The notes under the pieces: model-generated
What the model saw: only the letters and a program-made list of their open reading frames with translations
Told to the model about the DNA's origin: nothing
Databases searched by the model: none
From: Escherichia coli
Lineage (GTDB): Bacteria > Pseudomonadota > Gammaproteobacteria > Enterobacterales > Enterobacteriaceae
Assembly (NCBI RefSeq): GCF_041886205.1
Contig: NZ_CP169029.1
Length of the DNA stretch: 64,000 nt
Direction: 5' to 3' (one strand)
Part shown: positions 2,904 through 48,061 of the stretch, one piece after another
Numbering within the stretch: position 1 is the first letter of the stretch
Layout of the letters: each line of letters starts with the position of its first letter
Made by a program: the position numbers and the translations under genes

Positions 2904-2929
2904 ATATTTGAAAGGTTGGTTTGGGAGAA
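2904..2929. other. Invertase crossover site A (gix/hix-like 12+2+12)
   Basis: atatttgaaagg-tt-ggtttgggagaa; inverted copy of the site at 4814-4839 (15 nt identical in reverse complement) with matching AA/TT core. Confidence 0.7.
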
Positions 2930-3415
2930 GGCTCAGCGTTACCCGTTGGTGTGCCTGTTCCGTGGCCTTCAGCCACACCACCAACAGGCTGGCTGAAATG
3001 CAACGGTGCACCTTTTTCTGCCGAAGAGTACCCAAAACTGGCAAAGGCTTACCCAAAGTTAAAATTACCGGATTTGCGCGGTGAGTTTATTCGCGGGTGG
3101 GATGATGGGCGAGGTGTTGATTCCGCGAGACTGCTGCTTTCAAGTCAGGCAGCATCTATCCTTGAACATAACCATGAAATGCATGGATGGACAGGGAACC
3201 CACTCATGGCTAGAGATGTTGGTGAATTAGGTACATCATCCGTATTTGCGGTGCAGTTGAGCATTGGCGATGGCGGGTTATTGTATTCGTGGAAGGATGG
3301 GAGTGGAACAACAAATGACAGTAAACGAATGGATAGAACAAATCATGTCAGTTCCGGCGCCGGTGATGGTAGCCCGCGAAACATTGCATTTAACTACATT
3401 GTGAGGGCTGCATAA
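2921..3415 (+). CDS. Alternative tail-fibre C-terminal variable segment (promoterless in current orientation; fused to constant part after inversion)
   Basis: ORF begins inside crossover site A; GLGEGSALPVGVPVPWPSATPPTGWLKCNGAPF tail-fibre C-terminal motifs. Confidence 0.65.
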   Translation: MGEGSALPVGVPVPWPSATPPTGWLKCNGAPFSAEEYPKLAKAYPKLKLPDLRGEFIRGWDDGRGVDSARLLLSSQAASILEHNHEMHGWTGNPLMARDVGELGTSSVFAVQLSIGDGGLLYSWKDGSGTTNDSKRMDRTNHVSSGAGDGSPRNIAFNYIVRAA

Positions 3416-4018
3416 ATGGAACAGGCTATTTTGGGAAAAGACGGTTACGCTTTAAATGATGGGGAAATCATCGTACATAACTATGATGGCGAAACGCGGG
3501 AATATATTTCTACATCAACTGAATATCTCGCTGTCGGAGTCGGTATCCCGGCATGTTCCTGTCTGGATGCACCAGGTACACATAAAGCTGGTTATGCAAT
3601 CTGTCGCTCTGTAGATTTAAATTCATGGGAATATGTGCCAGACCATCGCGGTGAAACGGTCTATAGCACCAAAACAGGAGAATCAAAAGAAATCACCGCT
3701 CCGGGTGATTACCCTGAAAATACAACCACTATCGCCCCATTAACGCCATACGATAAATGGGATGGTGAGAAATGGGTGACCGATACTGAGGCACAGCATA
3801 GCGCCGCAGTAGACGCGGCAGAAGCACAGCGCCAGTCACTGATTGATGCTGCAATGGCTTCCATTAGTCTGATTCAACTGAAATTGCAGGCCGGACGTAA
3901 ACTGACGCAGGCAGAAACAACCAGACTTAACGCTGTGCTGGATTACATTGACGCGGTGACGGCAACAGATACCAGCACCGCGCCGGATGTCATCTGGCCT
4001 GAACTGCCGGAGGCGTAG
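3416..4018 (+). CDS. Tail fibre assembly protein (alternative cassette, Tfa')
   Basis: 200 aa, starts 1 nt after the variable segment; C-terminal ...PDVIWPELPEA typical of Tfa family. Confidence 0.7.
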   Translation: MEQAILGKDGYALNDGEIIVHNYDGETREYISTSTEYLAVGVGIPACSCLDAPGTHKAGYAICRSVDLNSWEYVPDHRGETVYSTKTGESKEITAPGDYPENTTTIAPLTPYDKWDGEKWVTDTEAQHSAAVDAAEAQRQSLIDAAMASISLIQLKLQAGRKLTQAETTRLNAVLDYIDAVTATDTSTAPDVIWPELPEA

Positions 4019-4442
4019 GCCATTCAATATCTGGCGCACTGGAGGTATCAACCAGCTCCAGTGCATCCAGATAATCCAGCCACAAATTATATTGCGCCAG
4101 TTCCTCACCTTTCAGACGACCAATAGCGGCTTTACCGGGCCATTGCTTACTGTTCATGTATTCGTTGGCCTGGTTAATTAGTAGCTGTCTTTCTGATTCA
4201 GTAATTTCAATAAGCTCTTCATGCGTGGGTGGAGGAATATCTGCCCACGCAGGCAGCCCATCATCTCCGGCAATACGGATTTTTCCTTGTGGCGGTTCAG
4301 CCATAAACTCACTGATAATATTTTGATTTACTTCCTTAGCGTCTGATAAATCCCATCCCTCTGATTTATATTTATCAATCATATCCACAGGGAAAAAAGC
4401 ATTATGCCTTGCGCTATAAACATATTCGTTCATATAAATCAC
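3990..4442 (-). CDS. Tail fibre assembly protein (Tfa, active cassette)
   Basis: 150 aa; C-terminal ...PDIEWPTPP; 3' end overlaps convergent tfa' by 29 nt. Confidence 0.75.
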   Translation of the reverse strand: MIYMNEYVYSARHNAFFPVDMIDKYKSEGWDLSDAKEVNQNIISEFMAEPPQGKIRIAGDDGLPAWADIPPPTHEELIEITESERQLLINQANEYMNSKQWPGKAAIGRLKGEELAQYNLWLDYLDALELVDTSSAPDIEWPTPPAVQAR

Positions 4443-5119: not shown

Positions 5120-5704
5120 TTACTCCGGATATTTAAAAATTACGTAGGTATGCGACGGGCAGAGTTTGTTAAGCACACACTCGACAACGGTGTCGCCCCA
5201 GATACGCAGTGCGGAATCACAGGGATCGCCACATGTCATCCAGGTGGTGTTGGTGGCGGCTGGCATGTTGACCTGCCAGTAATACCGCCATTCCGGCGCA
5301 TTCACAGCGTCAGTGCAGGCTGATGAGCAGGTGAACGTGCTTTTGTCGTATCGCGTGATGGTAGCGTCTGGTCTGCCCAGGGCAGCAAGCTGTGCAAGAT
5401 AAAAATCCTCGTTGATGCCGCCCGCCAGGTTAACCTTCGCATCCAGCCGTTGCTGACGCTGGCGAAGGGTCTGTGTCCCTGCGGGAATACATTCATCCGG
5501 CAGACCGCACAGACGCTCCCAGCGGTTTATCAGTTCAGTGGTGGTGCGCGGATCCAGCTCCCGCATCAGGGCATCCGCACGCTGATGAACGCGGGTTAAT
5601 GACGGTGCCGCACCGGCAATCGCCGGATCGCTGGCTGACCACGCCGGACCGGGGGGCAACAGTGCCGACAACAGACGGATGTAATCATCGTTTGTCACGT
5701 CCAT
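5120..5704 (-). CDS. Mu gp48-like tail protein (YmfQ/DUF2313-like)
   Basis: 194 aa; position between baseplate J and tail fibre. Confidence 0.55.
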
Positions 5705-7713: not shown

Positions 7714-8792
7714 CAGAACGGGTCCTCCTGTACTCTGGCTTTTTTCTTTTTCCGCGCGCCGGGGTCTTCAGGTTCAGGCAGATAAGCATCAGGCGGGCCG
7801 ACACGGATTTCCGTCAGGGTGCCGTTCTGGTCCTGAGTAAACGTGACTTCCGAAACAAGCAGTTCGGTATTTTCGAAACCACAGACCGGATCAAAGACAA
7901 TCACCCGCTGGTTGGGCTGCCACAGCGTACCGTTACCCTGTCGCCAGCCCTGCACCACATAGGTGGTTTCATCCGTCCGCGCCGCCCGTTGTCGGGCTTC
8001 AAAGTCCGCACGGGCAATACAGCCTGCCCCCGTAGCCTGCCCTGTCTGCCTGATATACATCGGACGGTAACGGGCAATAAATGCGTCCTCTGTGCGGGCC
8101 CGCAGCGCGGTGGTGGTGGCCTCACCGAAATCATCGTCGTTTCCGGCACGCTGCCCCGCCACCTGGTAAACAGAAAACCGCTCCCGGATACTCTTCTCCG
8201 TATCGCAGGAAAGGATGTTTTCCCCAAGTACCAGCGCGGTATGTGCCCGCGTTGAGCCAATACCGCCAATCACCAGCCTGCCGTGCGGGTCGTCATAAGC
8301 CAGCGCCTGCTGCTGACCGAGTATTTTGTTAATCACCTCGATCACCGTTTCACCGTGATCAGGCTGGACATCAGGAATAACACCCGACGGCGCACCGCTG
8401 TTCACCACCTCAATACCGAAGGGCGCAGCAAGCGCCTGCGCAATCTGTACCAGTGATCGTCCGTTAAACTGTGTCGGTTCGGCTGCACAATCAATCAGGT
8501 CAGCGGTCAGACTGCGTCCGGCAATACCGGTGCTGACCGAACGGGCATCGTAACGAACGGGCGTCGCCTCCACCCAGCCGGTGATCACCAGCTCATCACC
8601 AATCAGCACCTCCACTTTTGAACCGTTTTTAATGCGCGGCTGAAGCATGGTGATACCCTCATCACCCGGCCACTGGCGAGTGATCTCCACACTGAAATCC
8701 CGCGCCAGCCGTTCAATACCGGCACCGATGCGCACCGATGTCCAGCCATTCCACTCCCGGCCATTTACCCGTAGCGTGACATTGTCGTTCAT
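7713..8792 (-). CDS. Mu gpP-like tail/baseplate hub protein
   Basis: 359 aa; follows DNA circulation protein as in Mu-like tails. Confidence 0.65.
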   Translation of the reverse strand: MNDNVTLRVNGREWNGWTSVRIGAGIERLARDFSVEITRQWPGDEGITMLQPRIKNGSKVEVLIGDELVITGWVEATPVRYDARSVSTGIAGRSLTADLIDCAAEPTQFNGRSLVQIAQALAAPFGIEVVNSGAPSGVIPDVQPDHGETVIEVINKILGQQQALAYDDPHGRLVIGGIGSTRAHTALVLGENILSCDTEKSIRERFSVYQVAGQRAGNDDDFGEATTTALRARTEDAFIARYRPMYIRQTGQATGAGCIARADFEARQRAARTDETTYVVQGWRQGNGTLWQPNQRVIVFDPVCGFENTELLVSEVTFTQDQNGTLTEIRVGPPDAYLPEPEDPGARKKKKARVQEDPF

Positions 8793-10162
8793 TGCACTGG
8801 CACCTTCAGAGGGATCACCGGCACAAAGCCGGGATGCGTAATGGCATTACGCCGGATAATGTCCGCGTCACGCGCCGCGTTATCAAACCAGGTCGCTGCC
8901 AGCACCAGCGCGGGTAAAACCTCATCCGGTGTGCGCTGAATGATCCGTGCAGACTGTTCAAGGCGCGTGTTGATATCCGCATTCAGATCTGCTTTCACCC
9001 GGCGCAGCGCCAGAAACAGCGCATCACTGGTTGTACGGGACAACTCCTTATCAATTGCCGTATTCAGTGTGTCGCGAATGTCAGTCAGTTCTTCCCACGT
9101 CGGCAGGTCAACCGTGTTTTTCACCGCCGGTGCATTGTTCAGTGCCGGATGCGTGACGGAAGGCCAGCCAGTGCTCTGCGCGGGTGTTGTTGCCTGCCCC
9201 ACTGCGGAATTCTGCATCACCGCGGAAGTTGTTGGCGCAGGCAATCGGGTGACGGCATACGCCGCTTCGCTGATTGCGGTCGTACGAAGGGTGCTGGCAA
9301 CCACGTTACGCTGCTGCGTAGCCGTGGCGGTGGTTTTACTGTCCGTTTTCCAGACGCCGCGCGGTTGCAGATCGCTGCCGAGGCTGACACCGGAAAGCGT
9401 TTTGATCATGGTGACCAGGTCGCTGGCGTTACCATAAAGGCGTTTCCCGGTACGCCACATTTTCTGCACCTGCTCAACGAAATTTTTGCCTGACGATGGC
9501 GGCGGCAGAAGTACCGAGATATCCCCCTGTAACAGCCTGGCGGCATCCGATACGGCAGAATCCACCACTTTCATCGCATCAGAAACATACCCCAGCATTA
9601 TGCTGGCATTACCGATAACGTCGTTCTGCACGAAATCCGCCACACCATCGATACTGAAACCGCTGAAGCTGTCACTGATGCAGTCATCCAGTGCAGAACA
9701 GGATGACATCAGCGTCTGCGCCGTCGCCGCACCTGATGTGGGGTAAGAGAGCTCTCCTGCTTCGACAAACTTCAGGTCAAAGCGGACAATACGTCCTTCA
9801 CTTTTCGATGTGCTGACCCGAACTTCCCCGTCAACACAGACTTTCAGCTCACCGTATGTCGGATGGACAAGCGTGCCGGGACCGGGTTTATTCAGCGCGT
9901 CAATCAGGCGATCGCGCTGGTCAAAACAGTCATCTCCCACCACATAAGCCGTGATGGACGGGCGGAAAGTGATTTTCCCCAGGTCTTCGGTATAGGGTTT
10001 GTCGCGGTTCGGGTATTCATGTGTTTCTACACGGCGACCGGTTCCCGCACTTTCTTCTTCAACCTTAAACGGCACACCTCGAAATGATGCTTCAAGTAGC
10101 TTTTCACGCCAGCCACTTCGAGAATCAGAGGATAGGTACGAAGAAATATGAGAAAAATCCAT
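8789..10162 (-). CDS. DNA circulation protein (Mu gpN-like)
   Basis: 457 aa; N-terminal ...WREKLLEASFRGVPFKVEEE...GRRVETHEYPNRDKPYTEDLG motif recalled from Mu N family. Confidence 0.75.
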   Translation of the reverse strand: MDFSHISSYLSSDSRSGWREKLLEASFRGVPFKVEEESAGTGRRVETHEYPNRDKPYTEDLGKITFRPSITAYVVGDDCFDQRDRLIDALNKPGPGTLVHPTYGELKVCVDGEVRVSTSKSEGRIVRFDLKFVEAGELSYPTSGAATAQTLMSSCSALDDCISDSFSGFSIDGVADFVQNDVIGNASIMLGYVSDAMKVVDSAVSDAARLLQGDISVLLPPPSSGKNFVEQVQKMWRTGKRLYGNASDLVTMIKTLSGVSLGSDLQPRGVWKTDSKTTATATQQRNVVASTLRTTAISEAAYAVTRLPAPTTSAVMQNSAVGQATTPAQSTGWPSVTHPALNNAPAVKNTVDLPTWEELTDIRDTLNTAIDKELSRTTSDALFLALRRVKADLNADINTRLEQSARIIQRTPDEVLPALVLAATWFDNAARDADIIRRNAITHPGFVPVIPLKVPVQ

Positions 10163-10176
10163 GGCGTCACCTCAAA

Positions 10177-10207
10177 TAAAAACCGCGTGTAAACGCGGTT
10201 TTTTATT
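10177..10207 (-). terminator. Intrinsic terminator (symmetrical, A-run/T-run flanked) after moron gene
   Basis: aaaaaccgcg-tgtaaa-cgcggtttttt perfect hairpin. Confidence 0.7.
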
Positions 10208-10218
10208 AGGTAATAAAA

Positions 10219-10707
10219 TTAACGATCATAATCAACATTATGAGTATCTATTCTACATGATGAATAAGTAATTCCGCTTTCACCACTAATATTTACGCCA
10301 GCCTTTACCTTCCCTGTTTTCGTAACATCAACAAAGAATTGCCCTCTTGGCATTTTAAATGCAAAAGAGAAACCAATAATTTCCGAGTCAAAGTTATTTT
10401 CATCCTCACTAATTGGTACAATAAAAGTCAATGGTGCAGATTGTGAGTTATTTTCAAAATCAAAAGCACCAATGCTTTTATTAAACTCGTAGGATGCTTT
10501 TTTTATTAAAAGAGTTCCACTTGCCGACTTTGCTGGGCATATTACATACAGTCTATTTATTCCCTCTACATCTAGATCTATATTCTTATCCGCTGAAGTT
10601 TTAACGTTATCTATAAAGTATGTAGCAAGCTGCTTTTCCGTTACTGGCTTCGCAAAGGAGTTTAATGGCAGTCCTACAGCCAACAACAATATAAACATTT
10701 TCTTCAT
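10219..10707 (-). CDS. Moron: secreted/periplasmic protein of unknown function (signal peptide MKKMFILLLAVGLPLNSFA)
   Basis: AT-rich ORF inserted between tape-measure and DNA-circulation genes; own terminator; N-terminal hydrophobic signal with SFA cleavage motif; ORF-track start 10740 probably upstream of true start. Confidence 0.6.
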   Translation of the reverse strand: MKKMFILLLAVGLPLNSFAKPVTEKQLATYFIDNVKTSADKNIDLDVEGINRLYVICPAKSASGTLLIKKASYEFNKSIGAFDFENNSQSAPLTFIVPISEDENNFDSEIIGFSFAFKMPRGQFFVDVTKTGKVKAGVNISGESGITYSSCRIDTHNVDYDR

Positions 10708-10771
10708 ATTCTCTCCTACATTCAGCACAAACTTTACCACTCAATAACCCTACTTGATTAAAGTAGTTATA

Positions 10772-12673
10772 TTATCGTCTGAATGGAGAATACCCCACAT
10801 CGTGCGTGATTTTCATCAGGGGATCGGCTTTGCCCGGTACATCAATTATCTTCATACCTGGCGGAGCATTCTCGAACGTGACTTTCAGCTCGCTGTGCTG
10901 TGTCATGGAAGAAGATGGATTCAACAGCGGAACATTGGGTTTGTACTGACTCAGGCTGGCCTGATACTGCTCGTACTCTTTACGATCAAAAAAAGGCGTC
11001 CAGTCTGAAGCCAGAAACAGCCCTTTATTATCCAGCCAGTTAACCGTATCTTCAGGAACAACACTTTCCAGAGTATCTTTAACCGGCTCATACATCAGGG
11101 TTCCCAGAAAACCATATACCCCGGCCTTCCCGATAAAGCCGCGCCCTTTCCCCATCAATCCCGTTTCTGCCGATACCTTCCCCAGCGTACGCATCTCTCT
11201 GGTCACTGCGGTAATGGATTTGGTAACGTCAGCAACCCATTTGGTTGCCATAAACAGGGCAATCGCTTTCAGAACAGTTTCCCATCCCCCCATCGCCTGC
11301 GCCGTTTCATCCACCACGTGCCAGACTTTTTTTATGACAGGACCTACGGTTTCCCAATTATCAATAATGAGGTAAGCGCCACCAACCAGAAGAGCAATCA
11401 GCCCCTTAGCAGGCGTCATATTCATCACACCGCCGAGAACTTTCATGATTCTGGACAAAGAGCCTGCAGCGGCCCCCACTGTCAGTAAAGCCAGACCGAT
11501 TTTAGCAATGGTCTTAACGAGCTCCGGGTTTTCACGGACAAACGTTCTCACTTCCTCAAGGAGCGGTTTTACCGCTTCAAGACCATCATTAACCTCAGGA
11601 AGAAACGTTTCCCCCAGAGTGGAAGAAATGGCATCAAGTTGATTTTGCAGAAGTAAAAGCTGGTTTTCCGTCGTCGCTGCCCTCGAAGCATATTCCTTCT
11701 GCATCGAACTGCCATACTGCTGGGAATCCGCAACCCGCCTGAAGTTGGTACGCAACAAATCAAGGTTAGTCAGCAGAGGTGCTATCGCGCCCAGAGACTC
11801 TTTCCCGAACAGGGCATTCAGCACAGCTGCCTGTTTTTCTTTAGGCACTTTAGACATCGCATCCAGTACAGACAGCATGGTTCCCCGGGCATCTTTCTGC
11901 ATATCAGCAGCTAATTTCTTCGGATTGATCCGCAGAAAACGTAATGCCTGTTTCTGCGATTTTGTCGCGGAATTTCCCGCGGTCAGGGAAAGCATGAAGT
12001 TCTTGATCCCTGTGGCGGCAATTTCTGACTCCACGCCCATCCCGGCAATGGTTGCCCCCATTGCCGCGATTTCGCCGGAAGCCACACCTGCAACACCACC
12101 TAAAGGACCAATACGCGTAACAATATCGGAGATTTTCTTCGCATTCGCCGGACCGGTATTACCAAGGTAGTTGATTTTGTCAGCCAGCCCGGCCACTTCA
12201 TCCTGCGTCATATTAAACGCAGTACGCCACTGGGCCATCATCTGCCCGGACTCTTCAGCCGTGGTATCAAAGGCCACGCCCATCTTCACCGCATCAGTGG
12301 CAAACTGCATCAGTTCATCACGTGCAATCCCGGCCTGACCGCCAGCCGCCACAATTTCCGCGATCCCGTCTGCAGACATGGGAAGCTCAGTAGACAAAGC
12401 GCGTACCTGCTCCGTCATGGCCTTAAACGCATCCGGCGTATCCAGACCGTCCACCACTTTGCGGACATCAGCCATCTTCGATTCAAGGGTGATGGCTGAT
12501 TTTACAGGGAGTGCCAGTGCCCCCATTATTGCAGTACCCGCCCCGGCAGCGCCCAGAGCAAGGCTGGAGACTTCTTTCTGAAACCCCTTAAGCTGACGCT
12601 GCATACCTTTAAGCGGGCCGGATAGCCTGTCAACGGCGGTGATGATGGCTTTCAGCTGAAAATTATCAGCCAT
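10772..12673 (-). CDS. Tail tape measure protein
   Basis: 633 aa, Ala/Gly-rich with hydrophobic central segments, located after tail tube/chaperone. Confidence 0.8.
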   Translation of the reverse strand: MADNFQLKAIITAVDRLSGPLKGMQRQLKGFQKEVSSLALGAAGAGTAIMGALALPVKSAITLESKMADVRKVVDGLDTPDAFKAMTEQVRALSTELPMSADGIAEIVAAGGQAGIARDELMQFATDAVKMGVAFDTTAEESGQMMAQWRTAFNMTQDEVAGLADKINYLGNTGPANAKKISDIVTRIGPLGGVAGVASGEIAAMGATIAGMGVESEIAATGIKNFMLSLTAGNSATKSQKQALRFLRINPKKLAADMQKDARGTMLSVLDAMSKVPKEKQAAVLNALFGKESLGAIAPLLTNLDLLRTNFRRVADSQQYGSSMQKEYASRAATTENQLLLLQNQLDAISSTLGETFLPEVNDGLEAVKPLLEEVRTFVRENPELVKTIAKIGLALLTVGAAAGSLSRIMKVLGGVMNMTPAKGLIALLVGGAYLIIDNWETVGPVIKKVWHVVDETAQAMGGWETVLKAIALFMATKWVADVTKSITAVTREMRTLGKVSAETGLMGKGRGFIGKAGVYGFLGTLMYEPVKDTLESVVPEDTVNWLDNKGLFLASDWTPFFDRKEYEQYQASLSQYKPNVPLLNPSSSMTQHSELKVTFENAPPGMKIIDVPGKADPLMKITHDVGYSPFRR

Positions 12674-25193: not shown

Positions 25194-25946
25194 TTATCTT
25201 GTCACTTTTCTCAATTGTGTCTCTGCATATGCTTCTTCCTGCCAGCACTTTGTAACCAGTTTATCAATGACATCTGCATATCCTTTGTACCACTGATAAT
25301 CCGTCAGGTCTGGTACCAGCTTCTGGACATGATGCCGCGCCAGTGTGGTTGGTAAACGGCTAAACCGGTTTCCATTGCAACGCCCACAAATCTTATAAAC
25401 AGGCGTGCCATGAAGCCGGGTCCTTTTTTCATCCAGGACAATACCTTTACCCTTACACCCTCTGCACGCTGTGCTGACTTCTCCCTTACCATGACAATGC
25501 TGACATAGTTCCTTCACCCACTCTTCCTTGATAACAGATTCCCCGCTTCTGGAGTGTTTCACCACTTCGCGCAATACATTATGAAATCCAGTACCAGCAC
25601 AATGCTCACAGCGAGCCTTACTTGCCGCAGACCTGGAATAATCAGCAAAGGCAAAATTCACAAGGTAAGGAATAATCTGTAGCCGGGTTTCTTCACTCAA
25701 TTTATTCAATGTCGGGCTATCCAGTGCCATCGCGTAATTGAGCAGACCTTCAATCGCAAACTGAGGATCCTGAACACCAACTTTTGCCAGGAATAAGGCA
25801 AACCCAAGCGGTGCTTTCGACTGCACCATCCCCTGCGCAGCCATCACATCCGTAATTGTTAAACCACCAGAGCCTGTCGCCGGTGCGTCATCGCTCAATT
25901 TTGGAGATTTTGGGGAGTAATATTTCGGTAAGGCTTCAAGGTTCAT
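25194..25946 (-). CDS. Late antiterminator Q-like protein (multi-CxxC zinc-finger type)
   Basis: 250 aa with four CxxC pairs; located immediately upstream of late promoter/lysis cassette. Confidence 0.6.
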   Translation of the reverse strand: MNLEALPKYYSPKSPKLSDDAPATGSGGLTITDVMAAQGMVQSKAPLGFALFLAKVGVQDPQFAIEGLLNYAMALDSPTLNKLSEETRLQIIPYLVNFAFADYSRSAASKARCEHCAGTGFHNVLREVVKHSRSGESVIKEEWVKELCQHCHGKGEVSTACRGCKGKGIVLDEKRTRLHGTPVYKICGRCNGNRFSRLPTTLARHHVQKLVPDLTDYQWYKGYADVIDKLVTKCWQEEAYAETQLRKVTR

Positions 25947-37075: not shown

Positions 37076-37348
37076 ATGAATACCTTGTTTTTACTGATGG
37101 CTGAATTCAATACCCCTAACATTGAACTCTCAGCAGTTAGCCAAAAGTACTTTGGCATGAGTCCAGCCACGGCAGAAGCAAAAGCAAACGCTTGTAAGTT
37201 GCCCGTTCCAACATATCGCATCGGCACATCACAAAAAGCAAAACGTTGCATCAATATTCAGGATCTTGCGGAATACATAGACAAAAGGCGAGAAGAAGGG
37301 CGTGCTGAGTGGGAAAGGGTCAGAACCCATAAACAAAGGCTCATTTAA
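37076..37348 (+). CDS. Small DNA-binding protein, excisionase/PrtN-like (uncertain)
   Basis: ~90 aa from MNTLFLL; FGMSPATAEAKANACKLPVPTYRIG resembles PrtN-type HTH as recalled; last gene before element terminus. Confidence 0.35.
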   Translation: MNTLFLLMAEFNTPNIELSAVSQKYFGMSPATAEAKANACKLPVPTYRIGTSQKAKRCINIQDLAEYIDKRREEGRAEWERVRTHKQRLI

Positions 37349-37356
37349 ATAGAATA

Positions 37357-37388
37357 TGAATAAACCCATCCAAAGATGGGTTTATTCA
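37357..37388. terminator. Bidirectional hairpin terminator between convergent genes
   Basis: tgaataaacccatc-caaa-gatgggtttattca, 14-bp perfect stem. Confidence 0.6.
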
Positions 37389-37852
37389 TAATGTTGAAGA
37401 GCAGCGAGTATCAGTTTTTTATGCCGTTTAACCATAGTTTTAGATATCTCAACTGCACATCGAACTTGTCTCATACAATGATCTGTAATGCGACCTTTTA
37501 GCACGTCACCATATTGGATGGCTATTTTCTCTTTAATAATTTCAAGATCGAAAGCAGCATGAGCCTCAATGCAATTAACAAATGAGTCCCATTTAAGAAA
37601 ATCATGGTCCTCTCTATTAATTTCGACCTGACAAGCCATAAGATCATTGTTTCTCTTAATAAATTCATTTATATCTGAATTTATTAGAAGAACTAAAAGA
37701 GGTTCACAGCAAACAACCACCATATATTTTACTTTAGGTGGGGTCGTAAAATCACAATGAAGATACAATACATCACCGGGTGATATACCTCTTTCACGAC
37801 TAAAATTAGCCTTAAAATCAGGAGGGAAACAATCACCCAGCATAAGTATCAA
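37382..37852 (-). CDS. Unknown 156-aa protein, downstream partner of Panacea-domain gene (candidate toxin/effector)
   Basis: 4-nt overlap with upstream gene; no recognisable family by eye; no predicted TM helix. Confidence 0.4.
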   Translation of the reverse strand: MILMLGDCFPPDFKANFSRERGISPGDVLYLHCDFTTPPKVKYMVVVCCEPLLVLLINSDINEFIKRNNDLMACQVEINREDHDFLKWDSFVNCIEAHAAFDLEIIKEKIAIQYGDVLKGRITDHCMRQVRCAVEISKTMVKRHKKLILAALQHYE

Positions 37853-38430
37853 TATCCGTTCTTCAGATAATCCAGTATTAATTTGCTATTTTTTAGCTGT
37901 GCAACTATCGATTCCAAAGACATCTCACCATTGTGATCTGCCTGTTCCCATGCCGCGTCATGGCTCATGGTTCTGATAGCTTCAAAGGACATGTTTCCAA
38001 GCATCGCGATAGACTTATCAATACACTCTAAATCTGAGTCACTAAAAAAGTCTTCATCAGCTTCACGGCTCGGCACAATCGTCATACCTGATACAGAAAA
38101 TGCTTTTCGCACAGAATCGACATCACAACCATTAGGAATGTAACGTCCATCTCCACGAGCAATTTTTATAATATCGTATGTGTTGCTTGCTACAGGCCCA
38201 TCCTTCATAGCGTTATAGTGATCGCCCGTTATGAGGCGTCCAAAACTTTCAAGGTGAAACCTGTCAGCATAATAAAGAATTTTTCCGACATGATAGATAT
38301 CTGGGATCGGTGCTTTAGAGGCGACGTACAGAATGGCCTCTAAAGCCTTTTCTGAATCAAACCTTACATTTAGCATCAATACACCCTTCATCCAAACAAC
38401 ATCGTCAAGCTCTGGCAAATGCAACCGCAT
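37849..38430 (-). CDS. Panacea/DUF4065 (SocA-like antitoxin) domain protein; true start may be internal Met
   Basis: Segment ALEAILYVASK...VGKILYYADRFHLESFGRLITGDHYNAMKDGPVASNTY fits the Panacea signature (LQKLLYYAQ...GPV) as recalled. Confidence 0.55.
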   Translation of the reverse strand: MRLHLPELDDVVWMKGVLMLNVRFDSEKALEAILYVASKAPIPDIYHVGKILYYADRFHLESFGRLITGDHYNAMKDGPVASNTYDIIKIARGDGRYIPNGCDVDSVRKAFSVSGMTIVPSREADEDFFSDSDLECIDKSIAMLGNMSFEAIRTMSHDAAWEQADHNGEMSLESIVAQLKNSKLILDYLKNGY

Positions 38431-38549
38431 CCGCCTTCTACAATCTTAAAGTCTTCACCTACGCTAGGTCAATTGAAGTGATGAGCAAATGATGCTTTCT
38501 AAGAAGAACAGGTTCCCAATAGGCTCCCACAAAGTGTATAACTACTTGT

Positions 38550-38675
38550 TTTTCAAAAACGGTACATCCTATCGAGCATTGGTGCAACGCTAAACCGACC
38601 ACTCCAGTGAACGTCAGTTTTTTCAGGCATTGCGCTGGTTTGGTTGATTTTTTGCATTTCAGAATTACCGTGCAT
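38550..38675 (-). pseudogene. dusA: Displaced 5' end of dusA (first ~35 codons) at the prophage attachment junction
   Basis: Minus-strand translation MHGNSEMQKINQTSAMPEKTDVHWSGRFSVAPMLD matches recalled DusA N-terminus, then diverges (RMYRF-stop). Confidence 0.6.
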
Positions 38676-38969
38676 TTTCAAATGTAGAGATTATTTTATC
38701 GATATATCATGGGGTTATGTTATTCAGCATCACTGTTCAGGAGGCTCAATAGCGGGGTACTATACCATAACAACAGGAAGCGCCTGTCTCATTGCAAAAG
38801 AAAATTGAGATCCTCTCAAGGCATGAAGCTCTCACGAAGTGATGGAAATAATCTTATTAGCCGTTAACTTTGTTAAGGCCAATGATAAACAATCCAGGTT
38901 CGACGATAAATAAAAAATCACACATTAAACTCCGGTGATATCTCCCCCTGCTAATAGCATTGATAGAGA

Positions 38970-39003
38970 AAAAAGAACCCAATAAATATTGGGTCCTTTT
39001 ATA
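38970..39003 (-). terminator. Intrinsic terminator downstream of 39038-40024
   Basis: minus strand ggacccaata-ttt-attgggttc hairpin followed by ttttttctc. Confidence 0.55.
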
Positions 39004-39037
39004 TAATGCCTTCCATACTATCGAAGAACTTCACATA

Positions 39038-40024
39038 TTATTTCTCCGATTTAACCCCGAACAAATCATAAATTAATTTAGAAGTGTCTGTAAGTATTTT
39101 AATCTCTTCCTTTGAGGTTGGGTCAAACGACTTCGCGAAGCTAATTAATTGTGGTGCAGCATCTCGCATTTTGCTTAAAATATCAGGATCGAGCGTTCCT
39201 TCATTCACCAGATGTGACATCTTATCCAGATAGCCATCAAAATTCATTTCTCCCCCATCAGCCAGACGCTTCATCTCTCCCAGGTACTTCTTCATATCAC
39301 GTTGAGATAATTTTTCAAACTGAGCTTTCAGGTAGCTCTCATTATTTTCATTAATATACACTGTTTCTGATAAATCTGCGTAGGCACTAGAATATGAAAG
39401 TGAAATTAACAGCGAAGCAAATAATTTTAAGCTGTTGTCATCATGTTCCTGGCAGGCATTAACAAACGTTAAAAAACCAGAACCTATTGCTTGAAAATGT
39501 ATATTCGCTAAAGGTTCATTATCCTTAGATTCCTCATAAAATAGCTGAACCGTGGAGGGAAGGTCATTCTTAGTTTCTACATCAAAAGTACATTGTTCAA
39601 TGGGCATTGCATCTTTATTATCCCCAAGATTACATATACTATTAATCGCGAAATGAAAAATAGCCCGGTCAACAACTGATGCAATAAAGTCACGATCGTT
39701 TAAATCCTCATCAGTGCAATCGTCAATATACTTATTGACCCACATTTTGAGATCATTTATTTGCTTAAGTAACATCACATTTTTTTTACGTGCATGCCAT
39801 AAATTATGCGTGATTCGTTGAATAAACAAATCTATTTTTGCAATAATTATATCCCGATGACGCAGCGCTGCATAATCAATAGATTTACCATATATATTAT
39901 TTAATTTACCTTTGATTGAACCTCTATTATCTAATTTATCTTTGATTGCATCTTCATTATCGAATTGATTTGAATTGAGTGTTTTATTAAAGTATCTAGT
40001 TGCACCGGGTATTATCTTCAACAT
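39038..40024 (-). CDS. AT-rich hypothetical protein on host side of att junction (occupies yjbL/yjbM position next to zur)
   Basis: 328-aa ORF, Asn/Lys/Asp-rich, low GC. Confidence 0.4.
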
Positions 40025-40341
40025 GATTCATCTACCTTTTTTGTCGTACCGTGTCCTCCTTATAATTCTTTTGCCATCTGGTCACTATCAAAAATCGCTC
40101 ATAATTTCTGAACTACAGGTATGCGTTTAAACCCAGTTAAATAAATAGCGAGTTAACTTGAAGCAATTTATTTAAAAATGAATTATTAATTATTATCGTG
40201 TTGATAATGGTACGACAAGGCAACACAACACCTTACCTACAAAACAGAAAATCAACATTACGGCAACAATAAGGGTTCTCGGTGTTTTTCCTGGAACATG
40301 GTAAAGTAAGGACATTCTTAACCCCCACTTTGAGGTGCCCG

Positions 40342-40857
40342 ATGGAAAAGACCACAACGCAGGAGTTATTAGCGCAGGCTGAAAAAATCTGCGCGCAGCG
40401 TAATGTGCGCCTGACCCCACAGCGCCTGGAAGTGTTGCGCCTGATGAGTCTGCAGGATGGCGCTATCAGCGCTTATGATCTGCTTGATTTACTGCGCGAA
40501 GCTGAACCGCAAGCCAAGCCGCCAACGGTTTATCGCGCGCTGGATTTTCTGCTTGAGCAAGGTTTTGTGCATAAGGTGGAATCCACCAACAGTTATGTGC
40601 TCTGTCATCTGTTCGACCAGCCCACCCATACGTCAGCCATGTTTATTTGCGATCGCTGCGGCGCGGTGAAAGAAGAGTGTGCTGAAGGCGTGGAAGACAT
40701 CATGCATACGTTGGCGGCAAAAATGGGTTTTGCCCTGCGGCATAATGTGATTGAAGCACATGGGCTCTGTGCGGCATGCGTGGAAGTGGAAGCGTGTCGT
40801 CATCCTGAACAGTGCCAGCATGATCACTCTGTGCAGGTGAAAAAGAAACCGCGTTAA
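40342..40857 (+). CDS. zur: Zinc uptake regulator Zur
   Basis: 171 aa from MEKTTTQELL...; Fur-family; ORF-track start 40282 is an upstream extension. Confidence 0.9.
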   Translation: MEKTTTQELLAQAEKICAQRNVRLTPQRLEVLRLMSLQDGAISAYDLLDLLREAEPQAKPPTVYRALDFLLEQGFVHKVESTNSYVLCHLFDQPTHTSAMFICDRCGAVKEECAEGVEDIMHTLAAKMGFALRHNVIEAHGLCAACVEVEACRHPEQCQHDHSVQVKKKPR

Positions 40858-47839: not shown

Positions 47840-48061
47840 GCCGAACTCTCCGTTACATAACGTAAAGGCATTGTATCGCAGAAAAGTGTTTACGGGAGAT
47901 GTAAAGCAAATTAAGTGATCTAATGCGCAACAAAAACGCAACAATCGCATGAAGTGGTAAAACGCTGTTGAACCTTACGCTTTGCCGATGCCCGTGCTGG
48001 CGAGGGCAACCATAGGGGCATCACCGCCCATGATGCCAGGAACGGTGATGTTTTCCTTTAC

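Follow-up and report, generated by a model that had tools for sequence, protein, structure and literature searches.

The 64-kb window analyzed here, by which we mean the whole stretch of E. coli DNA, carries a prophage in whose tail module an AT-rich gene for a predicted exported protein of family phrog_5586 lies between the tape-measure gene and a Mu gpN-like gene (N). A preliminary description of this DNA had read the gene as a moron, an accessory gene with its own terminator, and that reading is supported: the gene is dispensable in phage SfIV, its composition is foreign, a terminator-like hairpin of its own follows it, and other cargo is swapped in at the same site. The features of the locus are as follows.

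8789 to 10162, − strand: Mu gpN-like DNA-circulation/baseplate hub gene, the downstream neighbor (phrog_184/17109).
10115 to 10781, no strand assigned: exchangeable block of 667 bp, in place of which SfIV and E. coli MB19 have 91 bp.
10177 to 10206, − strand: intrinsic-terminator-like hairpin with a CCGCG/CGCGG core, extended by A-U pairs and followed by UUUUUAUUU.
10219 to 10707, − strand: coding sequence (CDS) of the 162-amino acid protein, predicted to be exported (phrog_5586).
10651 to 10707, − strand: signal peptide of Sec/signal peptidase I type, codons 1–19, with n-region KK, core FILLLAVGLPL and cleavage between SFA and K.
10708 to 10771, − strand: spacer of 64 nt from the tape-measure stop codon to the ATG, with a Shine–Dalgarno (SD) sequence AGGAG and a weak extended −10 candidate.
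10772 to 12673, − strand: tail tape-measure protein gene, the upstream neighbor (phrog_28, E = 2e-142).

The mechanically called open reading frame (ORF) is longer, beginning with a GTG at 10740, but three observations favor the ATG at 10707 as the start: the AGGAG (10713–10717) stands 6 nt 5′ of it, a canonical signal peptide follows, and it is the start given by RefSeq; the 489-bp gene corresponds to the RefSeq annotation, and the same ATG is used for the identical gene in E. coli RM9088. As read from the translated sequence, the protein begins with MKKMFILLLAVGLPLNSFA, followed by KPVTEK.... No lipobox was found in the signal peptide, and all full-length members of the family share an N-terminal hydrophobic segment that ends in small-x-A and is followed mostly by Lys, otherwise by Gly. 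Cys-57 and Cys-151 are the most conserved positions; in the numbering of the mature protein, C38 occurs in at least 90% of the family and C132 is invariant. The signal peptide, with its SFA/K cleavage motif, and the pair of cysteines that had been read from the ORF were both borne out for the 162-amino acid protein. The CDS has a GC content of 0.34, and of 0.26 at third codon positions (GC3), compared with 0.52 and 0.54 for the tape-measure gene and 0.55 and 0.58 for N; GC3 in the tail genes ranges from 0.54 to 0.65, and about 3% of the 489-bp windows in the 64-kb stretch are equally AT-rich. The gene is thus unlike its surroundings in composition, as is expected of a moron, and the composition profile and the family matches of the two neighbors agree with the preliminary description both on the AT-rich character of the gene among GC-rich tail genes and on its placement between the tape-measure and DNA-circulation genes.

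The hairpin 3′ of the gene, AAAAACCGCG-TGTAAA-CGCGGTTTTT, lies 12 nt past the stop codon and 15 nt short of the ATG of N. When the 56-nt intergenic region (10163–10218) was folded as RNA of the − strand, a free energy of −20.4 kcal/mol was obtained (z = −5.5), which none of 200 shuffled sequences equaled. The hairpin terminator with its U-tract was accordingly upheld, and at the level of sequence the cassette appears to carry a terminator of its own. A simple terminator scan of the window did not report the hairpin at 10177–10206, probably because A/U pairs lengthen the stem into the U-tract. Rfam matches at the hairpin (Leu leader and RNAI) fell below the gathering scores, occurred on both strands and were to models that end in terminators; neither identity was accepted, the matches reflecting only the terminator hairpin.

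Comparison with close relatives showed that the gene lies on a piece of DNA that can be present or absent. On both sides of the block at 10115–10781, DNA identity with SfIV and with E. coli MB19 is 97–99%, and in Shigella phage SfIV only 24 nt separate the tape-measure and N genes. The 91-bp empty state was also found in 30 IMG/VR loci. The window consequently holds extra DNA between genes that are adjacent in related phages, which, together with the deviant composition, is what the classical moron concept of Juhala/Hendrix describes (summarized in PMC3594210); in that concept a moron also has a promoter and a terminator of its own and is expressed from the repressed prophage. SfIV has been isolated as a phage that forms plaques and has a contractile tail (PMC3851460), and identity with the window amounts to 99% for its P protein, 96% for N, 99% for the tape-measure protein and 100% for the tube protein; because this viable phage lacks the gene and has neighboring tail proteins 96–100% identical to those of the window, the gene is not needed to build or use the tail. 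The cassette was present in ∼100 of 5426 complete E. coli genomes, a related N gene in ∼1090. When a phage collection was searched with the protein, a single record of an isolated phage, vB_EcoM-720R4, was returned, and a literature search found no paper naming this phage.

Two further copies of the region were noted. In avian pathogenic E. coli (APEC) E18005, a near-identical copy of the prophage, including the cassette, lies on the 205-kb plasmid pEND_Eco 18005 (NZ_CP126947.1, 173482–199082), with a dusA fragment at the integrase end; its place on a plasmid could reflect translocation of a chromosomal segment or a problem of assembly. In E. coli PEC122 (NZ_CM168021.1, 4438458–4439985), an IS1B element splits the 751-bp cassette region in two.

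The junction was surveyed in 80 IMG/VR loci in which the N gene is 96–100% identical to that of the window, a sample biased towards the close relatives of the window. The following states were found.

This gene (cassette A): 15 of 80 loci.
Cassette B: 11 of 80 loci.
Cassette C: 14 of 80 loci.
Empty, with a gap of 10–30 nt: at least 32 of 80 loci.

Cassette B encodes a 164-amino acid signal-peptide protein starting MRIFVFFISALLSFNLAAEEC... (phrog_8976, GC 0.32; L066, 2952–3446), and cassette C a 176-amino acid protein with an N-terminal hydrophobic anchor (phrog_5485, GC 0.34; L068, 2903–3433). The three cassettes were mutually unrelated by BLASTP and hhalign, and none of them was matched in PADLOC. 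B and C are each closed by their own terminator just 5′ of the N ribosome-binding site (RBS), and C has a reasonable promoter-like site, TTGTAA-16-TAGAAT, with a TG. Because the site is either empty or holds unrelated AT-rich cassettes for signal- or anchor-bearing proteins, each with a terminator, the survey shows the tape-measure/N junction to be a moron slot of recurring design: an AT-rich gene, an envelope-targeted product and a terminator. Escherichia phage SKA5 likewise carries cassette B, and Pantoea phage AH07 has a version of it with 42% identity.

Taken with the empty sites, these data show a cassette that is dispensable for a viable phage, compositionally foreign, present in a minority of near-identical tail modules and swapped as a block by recombination in its flanks. 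The block reaches into both neighbors, taking in the final codons of the tape-measure gene and ∼16 codons at the start of N, and no obvious flanking repeats were found at its ends; from these limits, homologous recombination within the tail genes on either side, and not site-specific insertion, appears to be how the cassette moves.

Family searches placed the protein in phrog_5586 over its full length (residues 1–161 against profile positions 1–161 of 161, E = 7.2e-85). For 11 members no Pfam family was matched at E ≤ 0.001, lipocalins and MliC included; for the protein itself there was no NCBIfam match, no family of PADLOC-DB 2.0 at E ≤ 1, no significant relative in a PDB sequence search and no match among the BFVD viral structures at E ≤ 0.001. 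The sole Pfam match, to a pectate-lyase-like family (E = 0.05), and PDB matches to Na/Ca exchangers (E ∼0.5) were set aside as not significant. An exhaustive profile search of 1.8 billion representatives returned 17 matches, from which P0025, a 2363-amino acid repeat protein (E = 9e-4), was dropped as a compositional/repeat artefact, and a second search with the family profile added no diversity. The family is small and confined to Enterobacterales, where it occurs in phage and plasmid-like contexts.

Four homologues of 35–49% identity (P0007, P0012, P0013 and P0015) occupy the identical tape-measure/N junction (loci L003, L005, L008 and L010). The other proteins of their tail modules are 48–89% identical to those of the window, making the phrog_5586 gene the most diverged of the module, and the homologues at the junction have a GC content of 0.37–0.42 against 0.47–0.57 for their flanks. 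An intrinsic-terminator hairpin lies 3′ of the gene in all five loci, with four different hairpin sequences among them. An apparent lack of a terminator in L010 was rejected, since a mis-called N start had swallowed the hairpin: in that locus (5471–5510) the called start takes in AAACCCGCCTTAGGCGGGTTTTC, and the true N start is probably the ATG at 5511 (MAFFSSNDWRDRL...). From these loci, the family appears to have been long associated with the tape-measure/N junction. In a metagenomic contig (L014, 2387–3423) a HIRAN-domain gene (195 amino acids) stands between the tape-measure gene and, after it, family member P0019, an arrangement that indicates a slot able to hold two cargo genes.

Three more distant relatives (P0018, P0020 and P0022; ∼25–30% identity, not AT-rich) were found outside tail modules, on three plasmid-like or phage-plasmid-like contigs, one of them from Pantoea, at the following positions (no strand assigned).

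L007: 2919 to 3413.
L011: 740 to 1270.
L013: 1 to 452.

Their neighbors include genes for a ParA-like protein, a CI-like repressor, MazEF or Gp49/HTH toxin–antitoxin pairs, IncFII RepA and a RecA-dependent nuclease. DNA searches of plasmid and phage collections with these contigs gave no match.

Close alleles of the gene differ by 8.5 nonsynonymous and 2.5 synonymous changes, against 4 and 17 in the flanks (Fisher p = 0.002–0.006). As far as sequence comparison can tell, the fast divergence and the allele changes would fit either an arms-race or conflict-type gene or a relaxed, weakly constrained accessory gene. Three metagenomic variants (P0002, P0003 and P0004) have in-frame internal deletions of 17–41 residues in mid-barrel, and may be decaying alleles or assembly artefacts.

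The signal peptide is predicted to be cleaved after SFA, with Sec export and folding in the periplasm of a mature part of ∼143 amino acids (15.8 kDa, pI 5.2). For structure prediction, an alignment of 11 mature proteins was supplied to AlphaFold, replacing an unusable model made from three sequences (predicted local distance difference test, pLDDT, of 39). The resulting model (pLDDT 89.3; predicted template-modelling score, pTM, 0.85) has a helix at residues 5–22 followed by eight strands, and it superimposes on the AFDB model of a 99%-identical Salmonella protein with a template-modelling (TM) score of 0.99. The predicted fold is an N-terminal helix plus an eight-stranded, antiparallel, up-and-down, lipocalin-like closed barrel. 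By the topology of the model one of the two cysteines is placed at the end of strand 1 and the other within strand 8; these strands adjoin in such a barrel, so that a C57–C151 disulfide would close the barrel and would fit periplasmic folding. The conserved motifs SASG, MPxGQFF and GESG fall in the loops between strands 1 and 2, 5 and 6, and 7 and 8; by topology these loops share one end of the barrel, which the model suggests to be a binding face. The homology and structure searches proposed in the preliminary description have yielded a full-length match to a family of no assigned function and a barrel model.

Within the prophage, the gene sits in a tail module of the order sheath, tube, chaperone, tape-measure, N, P, gp45, gp46, gp47 and gp48. 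A further gene may bear on its expression.

25194 to 25946, − strand: Q-like antiterminator of the same prophage (phrog_127, E = 1e-108).

Downstream of it on the same strand come holin, endolysin, spanin, terminase, head and tail genes. The host element is a temperate myophage of SfIV/SfV type, with lambdoid regulation and a Mu-like tail, integrated in an E. coli-type chromosome; the Mu-like label given to the cluster earlier was right for the tail, whereas the whole phage follows the lambdoid scheme of regulation. Elsewhere in the window, a serine recombinase/invertase gene (2281–2844, − strand) adjoins tail-fiber/assembly ORFs (2921–4018, + strand; 3990–4442, − strand), and the segment 2281–4442 looks like a Gin/Cin-type invertible host-range segment. 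Just beyond the tail-fiber end of the prophage lies a 334-amino acid ORF (844–1848, phrog_21683) with weak similarity to ClpP-related/SDH-family serine proteases (E = 5e-9, far under the curated cut-off). At the far end of the prophage, a second AT-rich island (37150–40000, GC 0.30–0.40) holds the uncharacterized ORFs 37382–37852, 37849–38430 (phrog_1281) and 39038–40024 (phrog_29005), none with a match in PADLOC or NCBIfam; it may be further prophage cargo, adjoining zur (40282–40857). An AT-rich chromosomal island (47900–49500, GC ∼0.30–0.33), adjoining ubiC/ubiA and plsB, encodes a 442-amino acid SopA-family/YjbI-like protein (NF007264, full score 1017).

That the gene is an accessory moron encoding an exported barrel protein we consider very likely, and the fuller explanation, a moron cassette that would be expressed in the lysogen and act in the envelope, we hold to be probable; the probabilities given here and below belong to readings that overlap. 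The cassette would comprise RBS, gene and intrinsic terminator, exchanged horizontally at the tape-measure/N junction. In the lysogen the gene would be transcribed alone, the terminator keeping transcription off the baseplate genes, and during lytic growth Q-modified RNA polymerase would pass the terminator. In lambdoid phages, Q-modified polymerase is known to pass terminators. Read-through of this kind would mean that the insertion is not polar and that a terminator within the tail operon is tolerated; for SfIV, Q-type terminator read-through has been stated (PMC3851460). The presence of a terminator after every junction cargo would be explained most simply if the cargo is also transcribed while the late operon is silent and the transcripts have to be kept from entering the baseplate genes, a line of reasoning that belongs to the classical moron concept (PMC3594210). 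Within the lysogen's periplasm the protein would then bind a partner in the cell envelope. Our preferred guess, rated well below even odds, is a role that protects the lysogen, whether by shutting out incoming phage when they reach the periplasmic stage or by inhibiting an enzyme that attacks the envelope. It is somewhat less likely again that the junction is an exchangeable slot for envelope-acting exclusion factors, with phrog_5586 as a new periplasmic anti-injection class and B (phrog_8976) and C (phrog_5485) as alternatives against other phages; in that case the disulfide-closed barrel would catch an incoming myophage in the periplasm by its tape-measure protein or tail tip.

Several observations weigh against expression in the lysogen and action in the envelope. 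The export, the disulfide and the barrel are predictions, the matches to the fold are generic, and no similarity to characterized exclusion, immunity or inhibitor proteins was found in PADLOC, Pfam, NCBIfam or the PDB sequences. The near-neutral ratio of nonsynonymous to synonymous change in close alleles is also compatible with weak selection, as are the truncated and internally deleted database variants. A sigma-70 scan found no promoter at threshold near the gene, the interval 10741–10771 included, and the promoter presumed there was not borne out: the best candidate of a lenient scan is a weak extended −10, TGgTAAAGT (10739–10731, − strand), with a poor −35, and it is not conserved. A separate promoter upstream of 10707 is accordingly not supported by sequence or statistics. 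In L010 the homologue begins only 16 nt past the tape-measure stop codon, so any promoter there would have to lie inside the tape-measure gene. The conserved place beside the tape-measure gene across diverged modules could, moreover, mean a role late in the lytic cycle. The gene would then be transcribed with the tail operon under Q, and its product exported late to act in the periplasm while the cell is dying; it might, for instance, cover receptors or debris and so spare progeny phage from being lost on them, in the manner of T5 Llp, or it might modulate lysis. The lack of a supported promoter, the short gap in L010, the strong RBS and the orientation and position kept inside the late operon in five diverged modules all speak for such a late gene. 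Against it stands the terminator directly after the gene in five loci, kept in function and not in sequence and present after B and C as well, which is hard to explain if the gene is only co-transcribed with the downstream baseplate genes; the plasmid-like relatives, too, adjoin maintenance and immunity genes, not late genes. On balance we regard a late gene, and equally the examples given for its action, as unlikely.

The remaining alternatives concern what the protein does. A lipocalin-type carrier of a small hydrophobic or envelope lipid ligand, altering the surface and with it serum resistance, colonization or membrane homeostasis, would count among the classical factors of lysogenic conversion or virulence and would have nothing to do with phage–phage conflict. 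The barrel model is lipocalin-like, but no lipocalin sequence family was matched and family members occur only in phage and plasmid-like surroundings within Enterobacterales, which leaves this explanation quite improbable. Slightly more doubtful is a periplasmic inhibitor of a peptidoglycan hydrolase, PliC/MliC-like or of the immunity type known for the type VI secretion system or colicins, which would guard the lysogen against host lysozyme, the effectors of competitors or the tail lysins of incoming phages. Identity in the alignments is 4–14%, none of the 11 members matched Pfam MliC, and scores at least as good are reached by avidins, designed barrels and MoaF-like proteins, so that what is shared is the general barrel fold. 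A structural or assembly component of the Mu-like tail, finally, is suggested by the position between the tape-measure and baseplate hub genes and by homologues at the same position in related modules. Conservation as a structural component had been named beforehand as the finding that would speak against a moron; the positional half of it was observed (L003, L005, L008 and L010), but the structural half was not. The gene is missing from viable SfIV despite the near-identity of the neighboring tail proteins, it is absent or replaced in most of the 80 loci, with the site empty in at least 32, unrelated genes are swapped in at the same site, the product has a Sec signal peptide, and relatives occur outside tails. 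We therefore consider a structural role highly improbable.

The moron cassette can be set beside several known systems. Gene 15 of HK97, reportedly treated as a moron by Juhala et al. (2000) and Cumby et al. (2012), is the closest in layout: in both cases an extra gene of deviant composition, with its own terminator, adjoins the tape-measure gene in the late tail operon of a temperate phage with Q antitermination, is missing from close relatives and has an envelope product (here predicted). HK97 gp15 is a superinfection-exclusion protein whose specificity maps to the tail of the incoming phage, encoded by a moron beside the tape-measure gene (PMC3594210). It differs in that it belongs to the YebO family, is small, sits in the inner membrane and blocks the entry of DNA, where the protein described here is a predicted soluble exported barrel of ∼143 amino acids for which sequence searches detected no characterized family as a relative, and gene 15 lies before the tape-measure gene whereas the phrog_5586 gene lies after it. 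The products of lambda bor and lom, of phi80/N15 cor and of T5 llp change the surface of the lysogen or exclude other phages, Bor, Cor and Llp being lipoproteins and Lom an outer-membrane barrel. These genes, like the present one, are accessory, lie in or beside tail genes and encode signal-peptide envelope proteins (partly from PMC3594210). The protein in the window, by contrast, has neither a lipobox nor membrane-barrel features, and no homology to these proteins was found. From PliC/MliC (PDB 3oe3, 4mir and 7dpy), with which its identity is 8–14%, it differs in lacking a sequence-family match, in its additional N-terminal helix and in its cysteine pattern, and the similarity is no better than that to avidins or designed barrels. 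Membership of phrog_5586 (PHROGs v4), the protein's own family, says nothing on mechanism. The old, tin and fun loci of P2 are accessory or defense hotspots at fixed positions in temperate phages, and the tape-measure/N site resembles them as a fixed junction between conserved structural genes that holds alternative, unrelated AT-rich cargo or nothing; it is unlike them in that its cargo consists of three uncharacterized envelope-targeted proteins, none matching PADLOC.

Morons are the main way in which temperate phages pay their hosts, and most are uncharacterized. The kind of element described here is well known and will not surprise phage biologists; this member is itself uncharacterized and is a useful experimental lead. 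Beyond the preliminary description, the analysis adds a family tied to the tape-measure/N junction, a slot with multiple cargo and a predicted periplasmic lipocalin-like barrel. The cassette is tractable: its 667-bp block has defined limits, relatives with empty sites provide natural controls, and the product has a confidently predicted fold and is predicted to reside in the periplasm. This family of phages is a common one in E. coli, Shigella and Salmonella, with enterotoxigenic (ETEC), APEC and Shiga toxin-producing (STEC) isolates of E. coli among the carriers. Should the cargo not be exclusion or immunity factors, the gene would be an ordinary hypothetical prophage gene; if it is, the slot would add soluble periplasmic effectors to a list that consists mostly of membrane proteins and lipoproteins.

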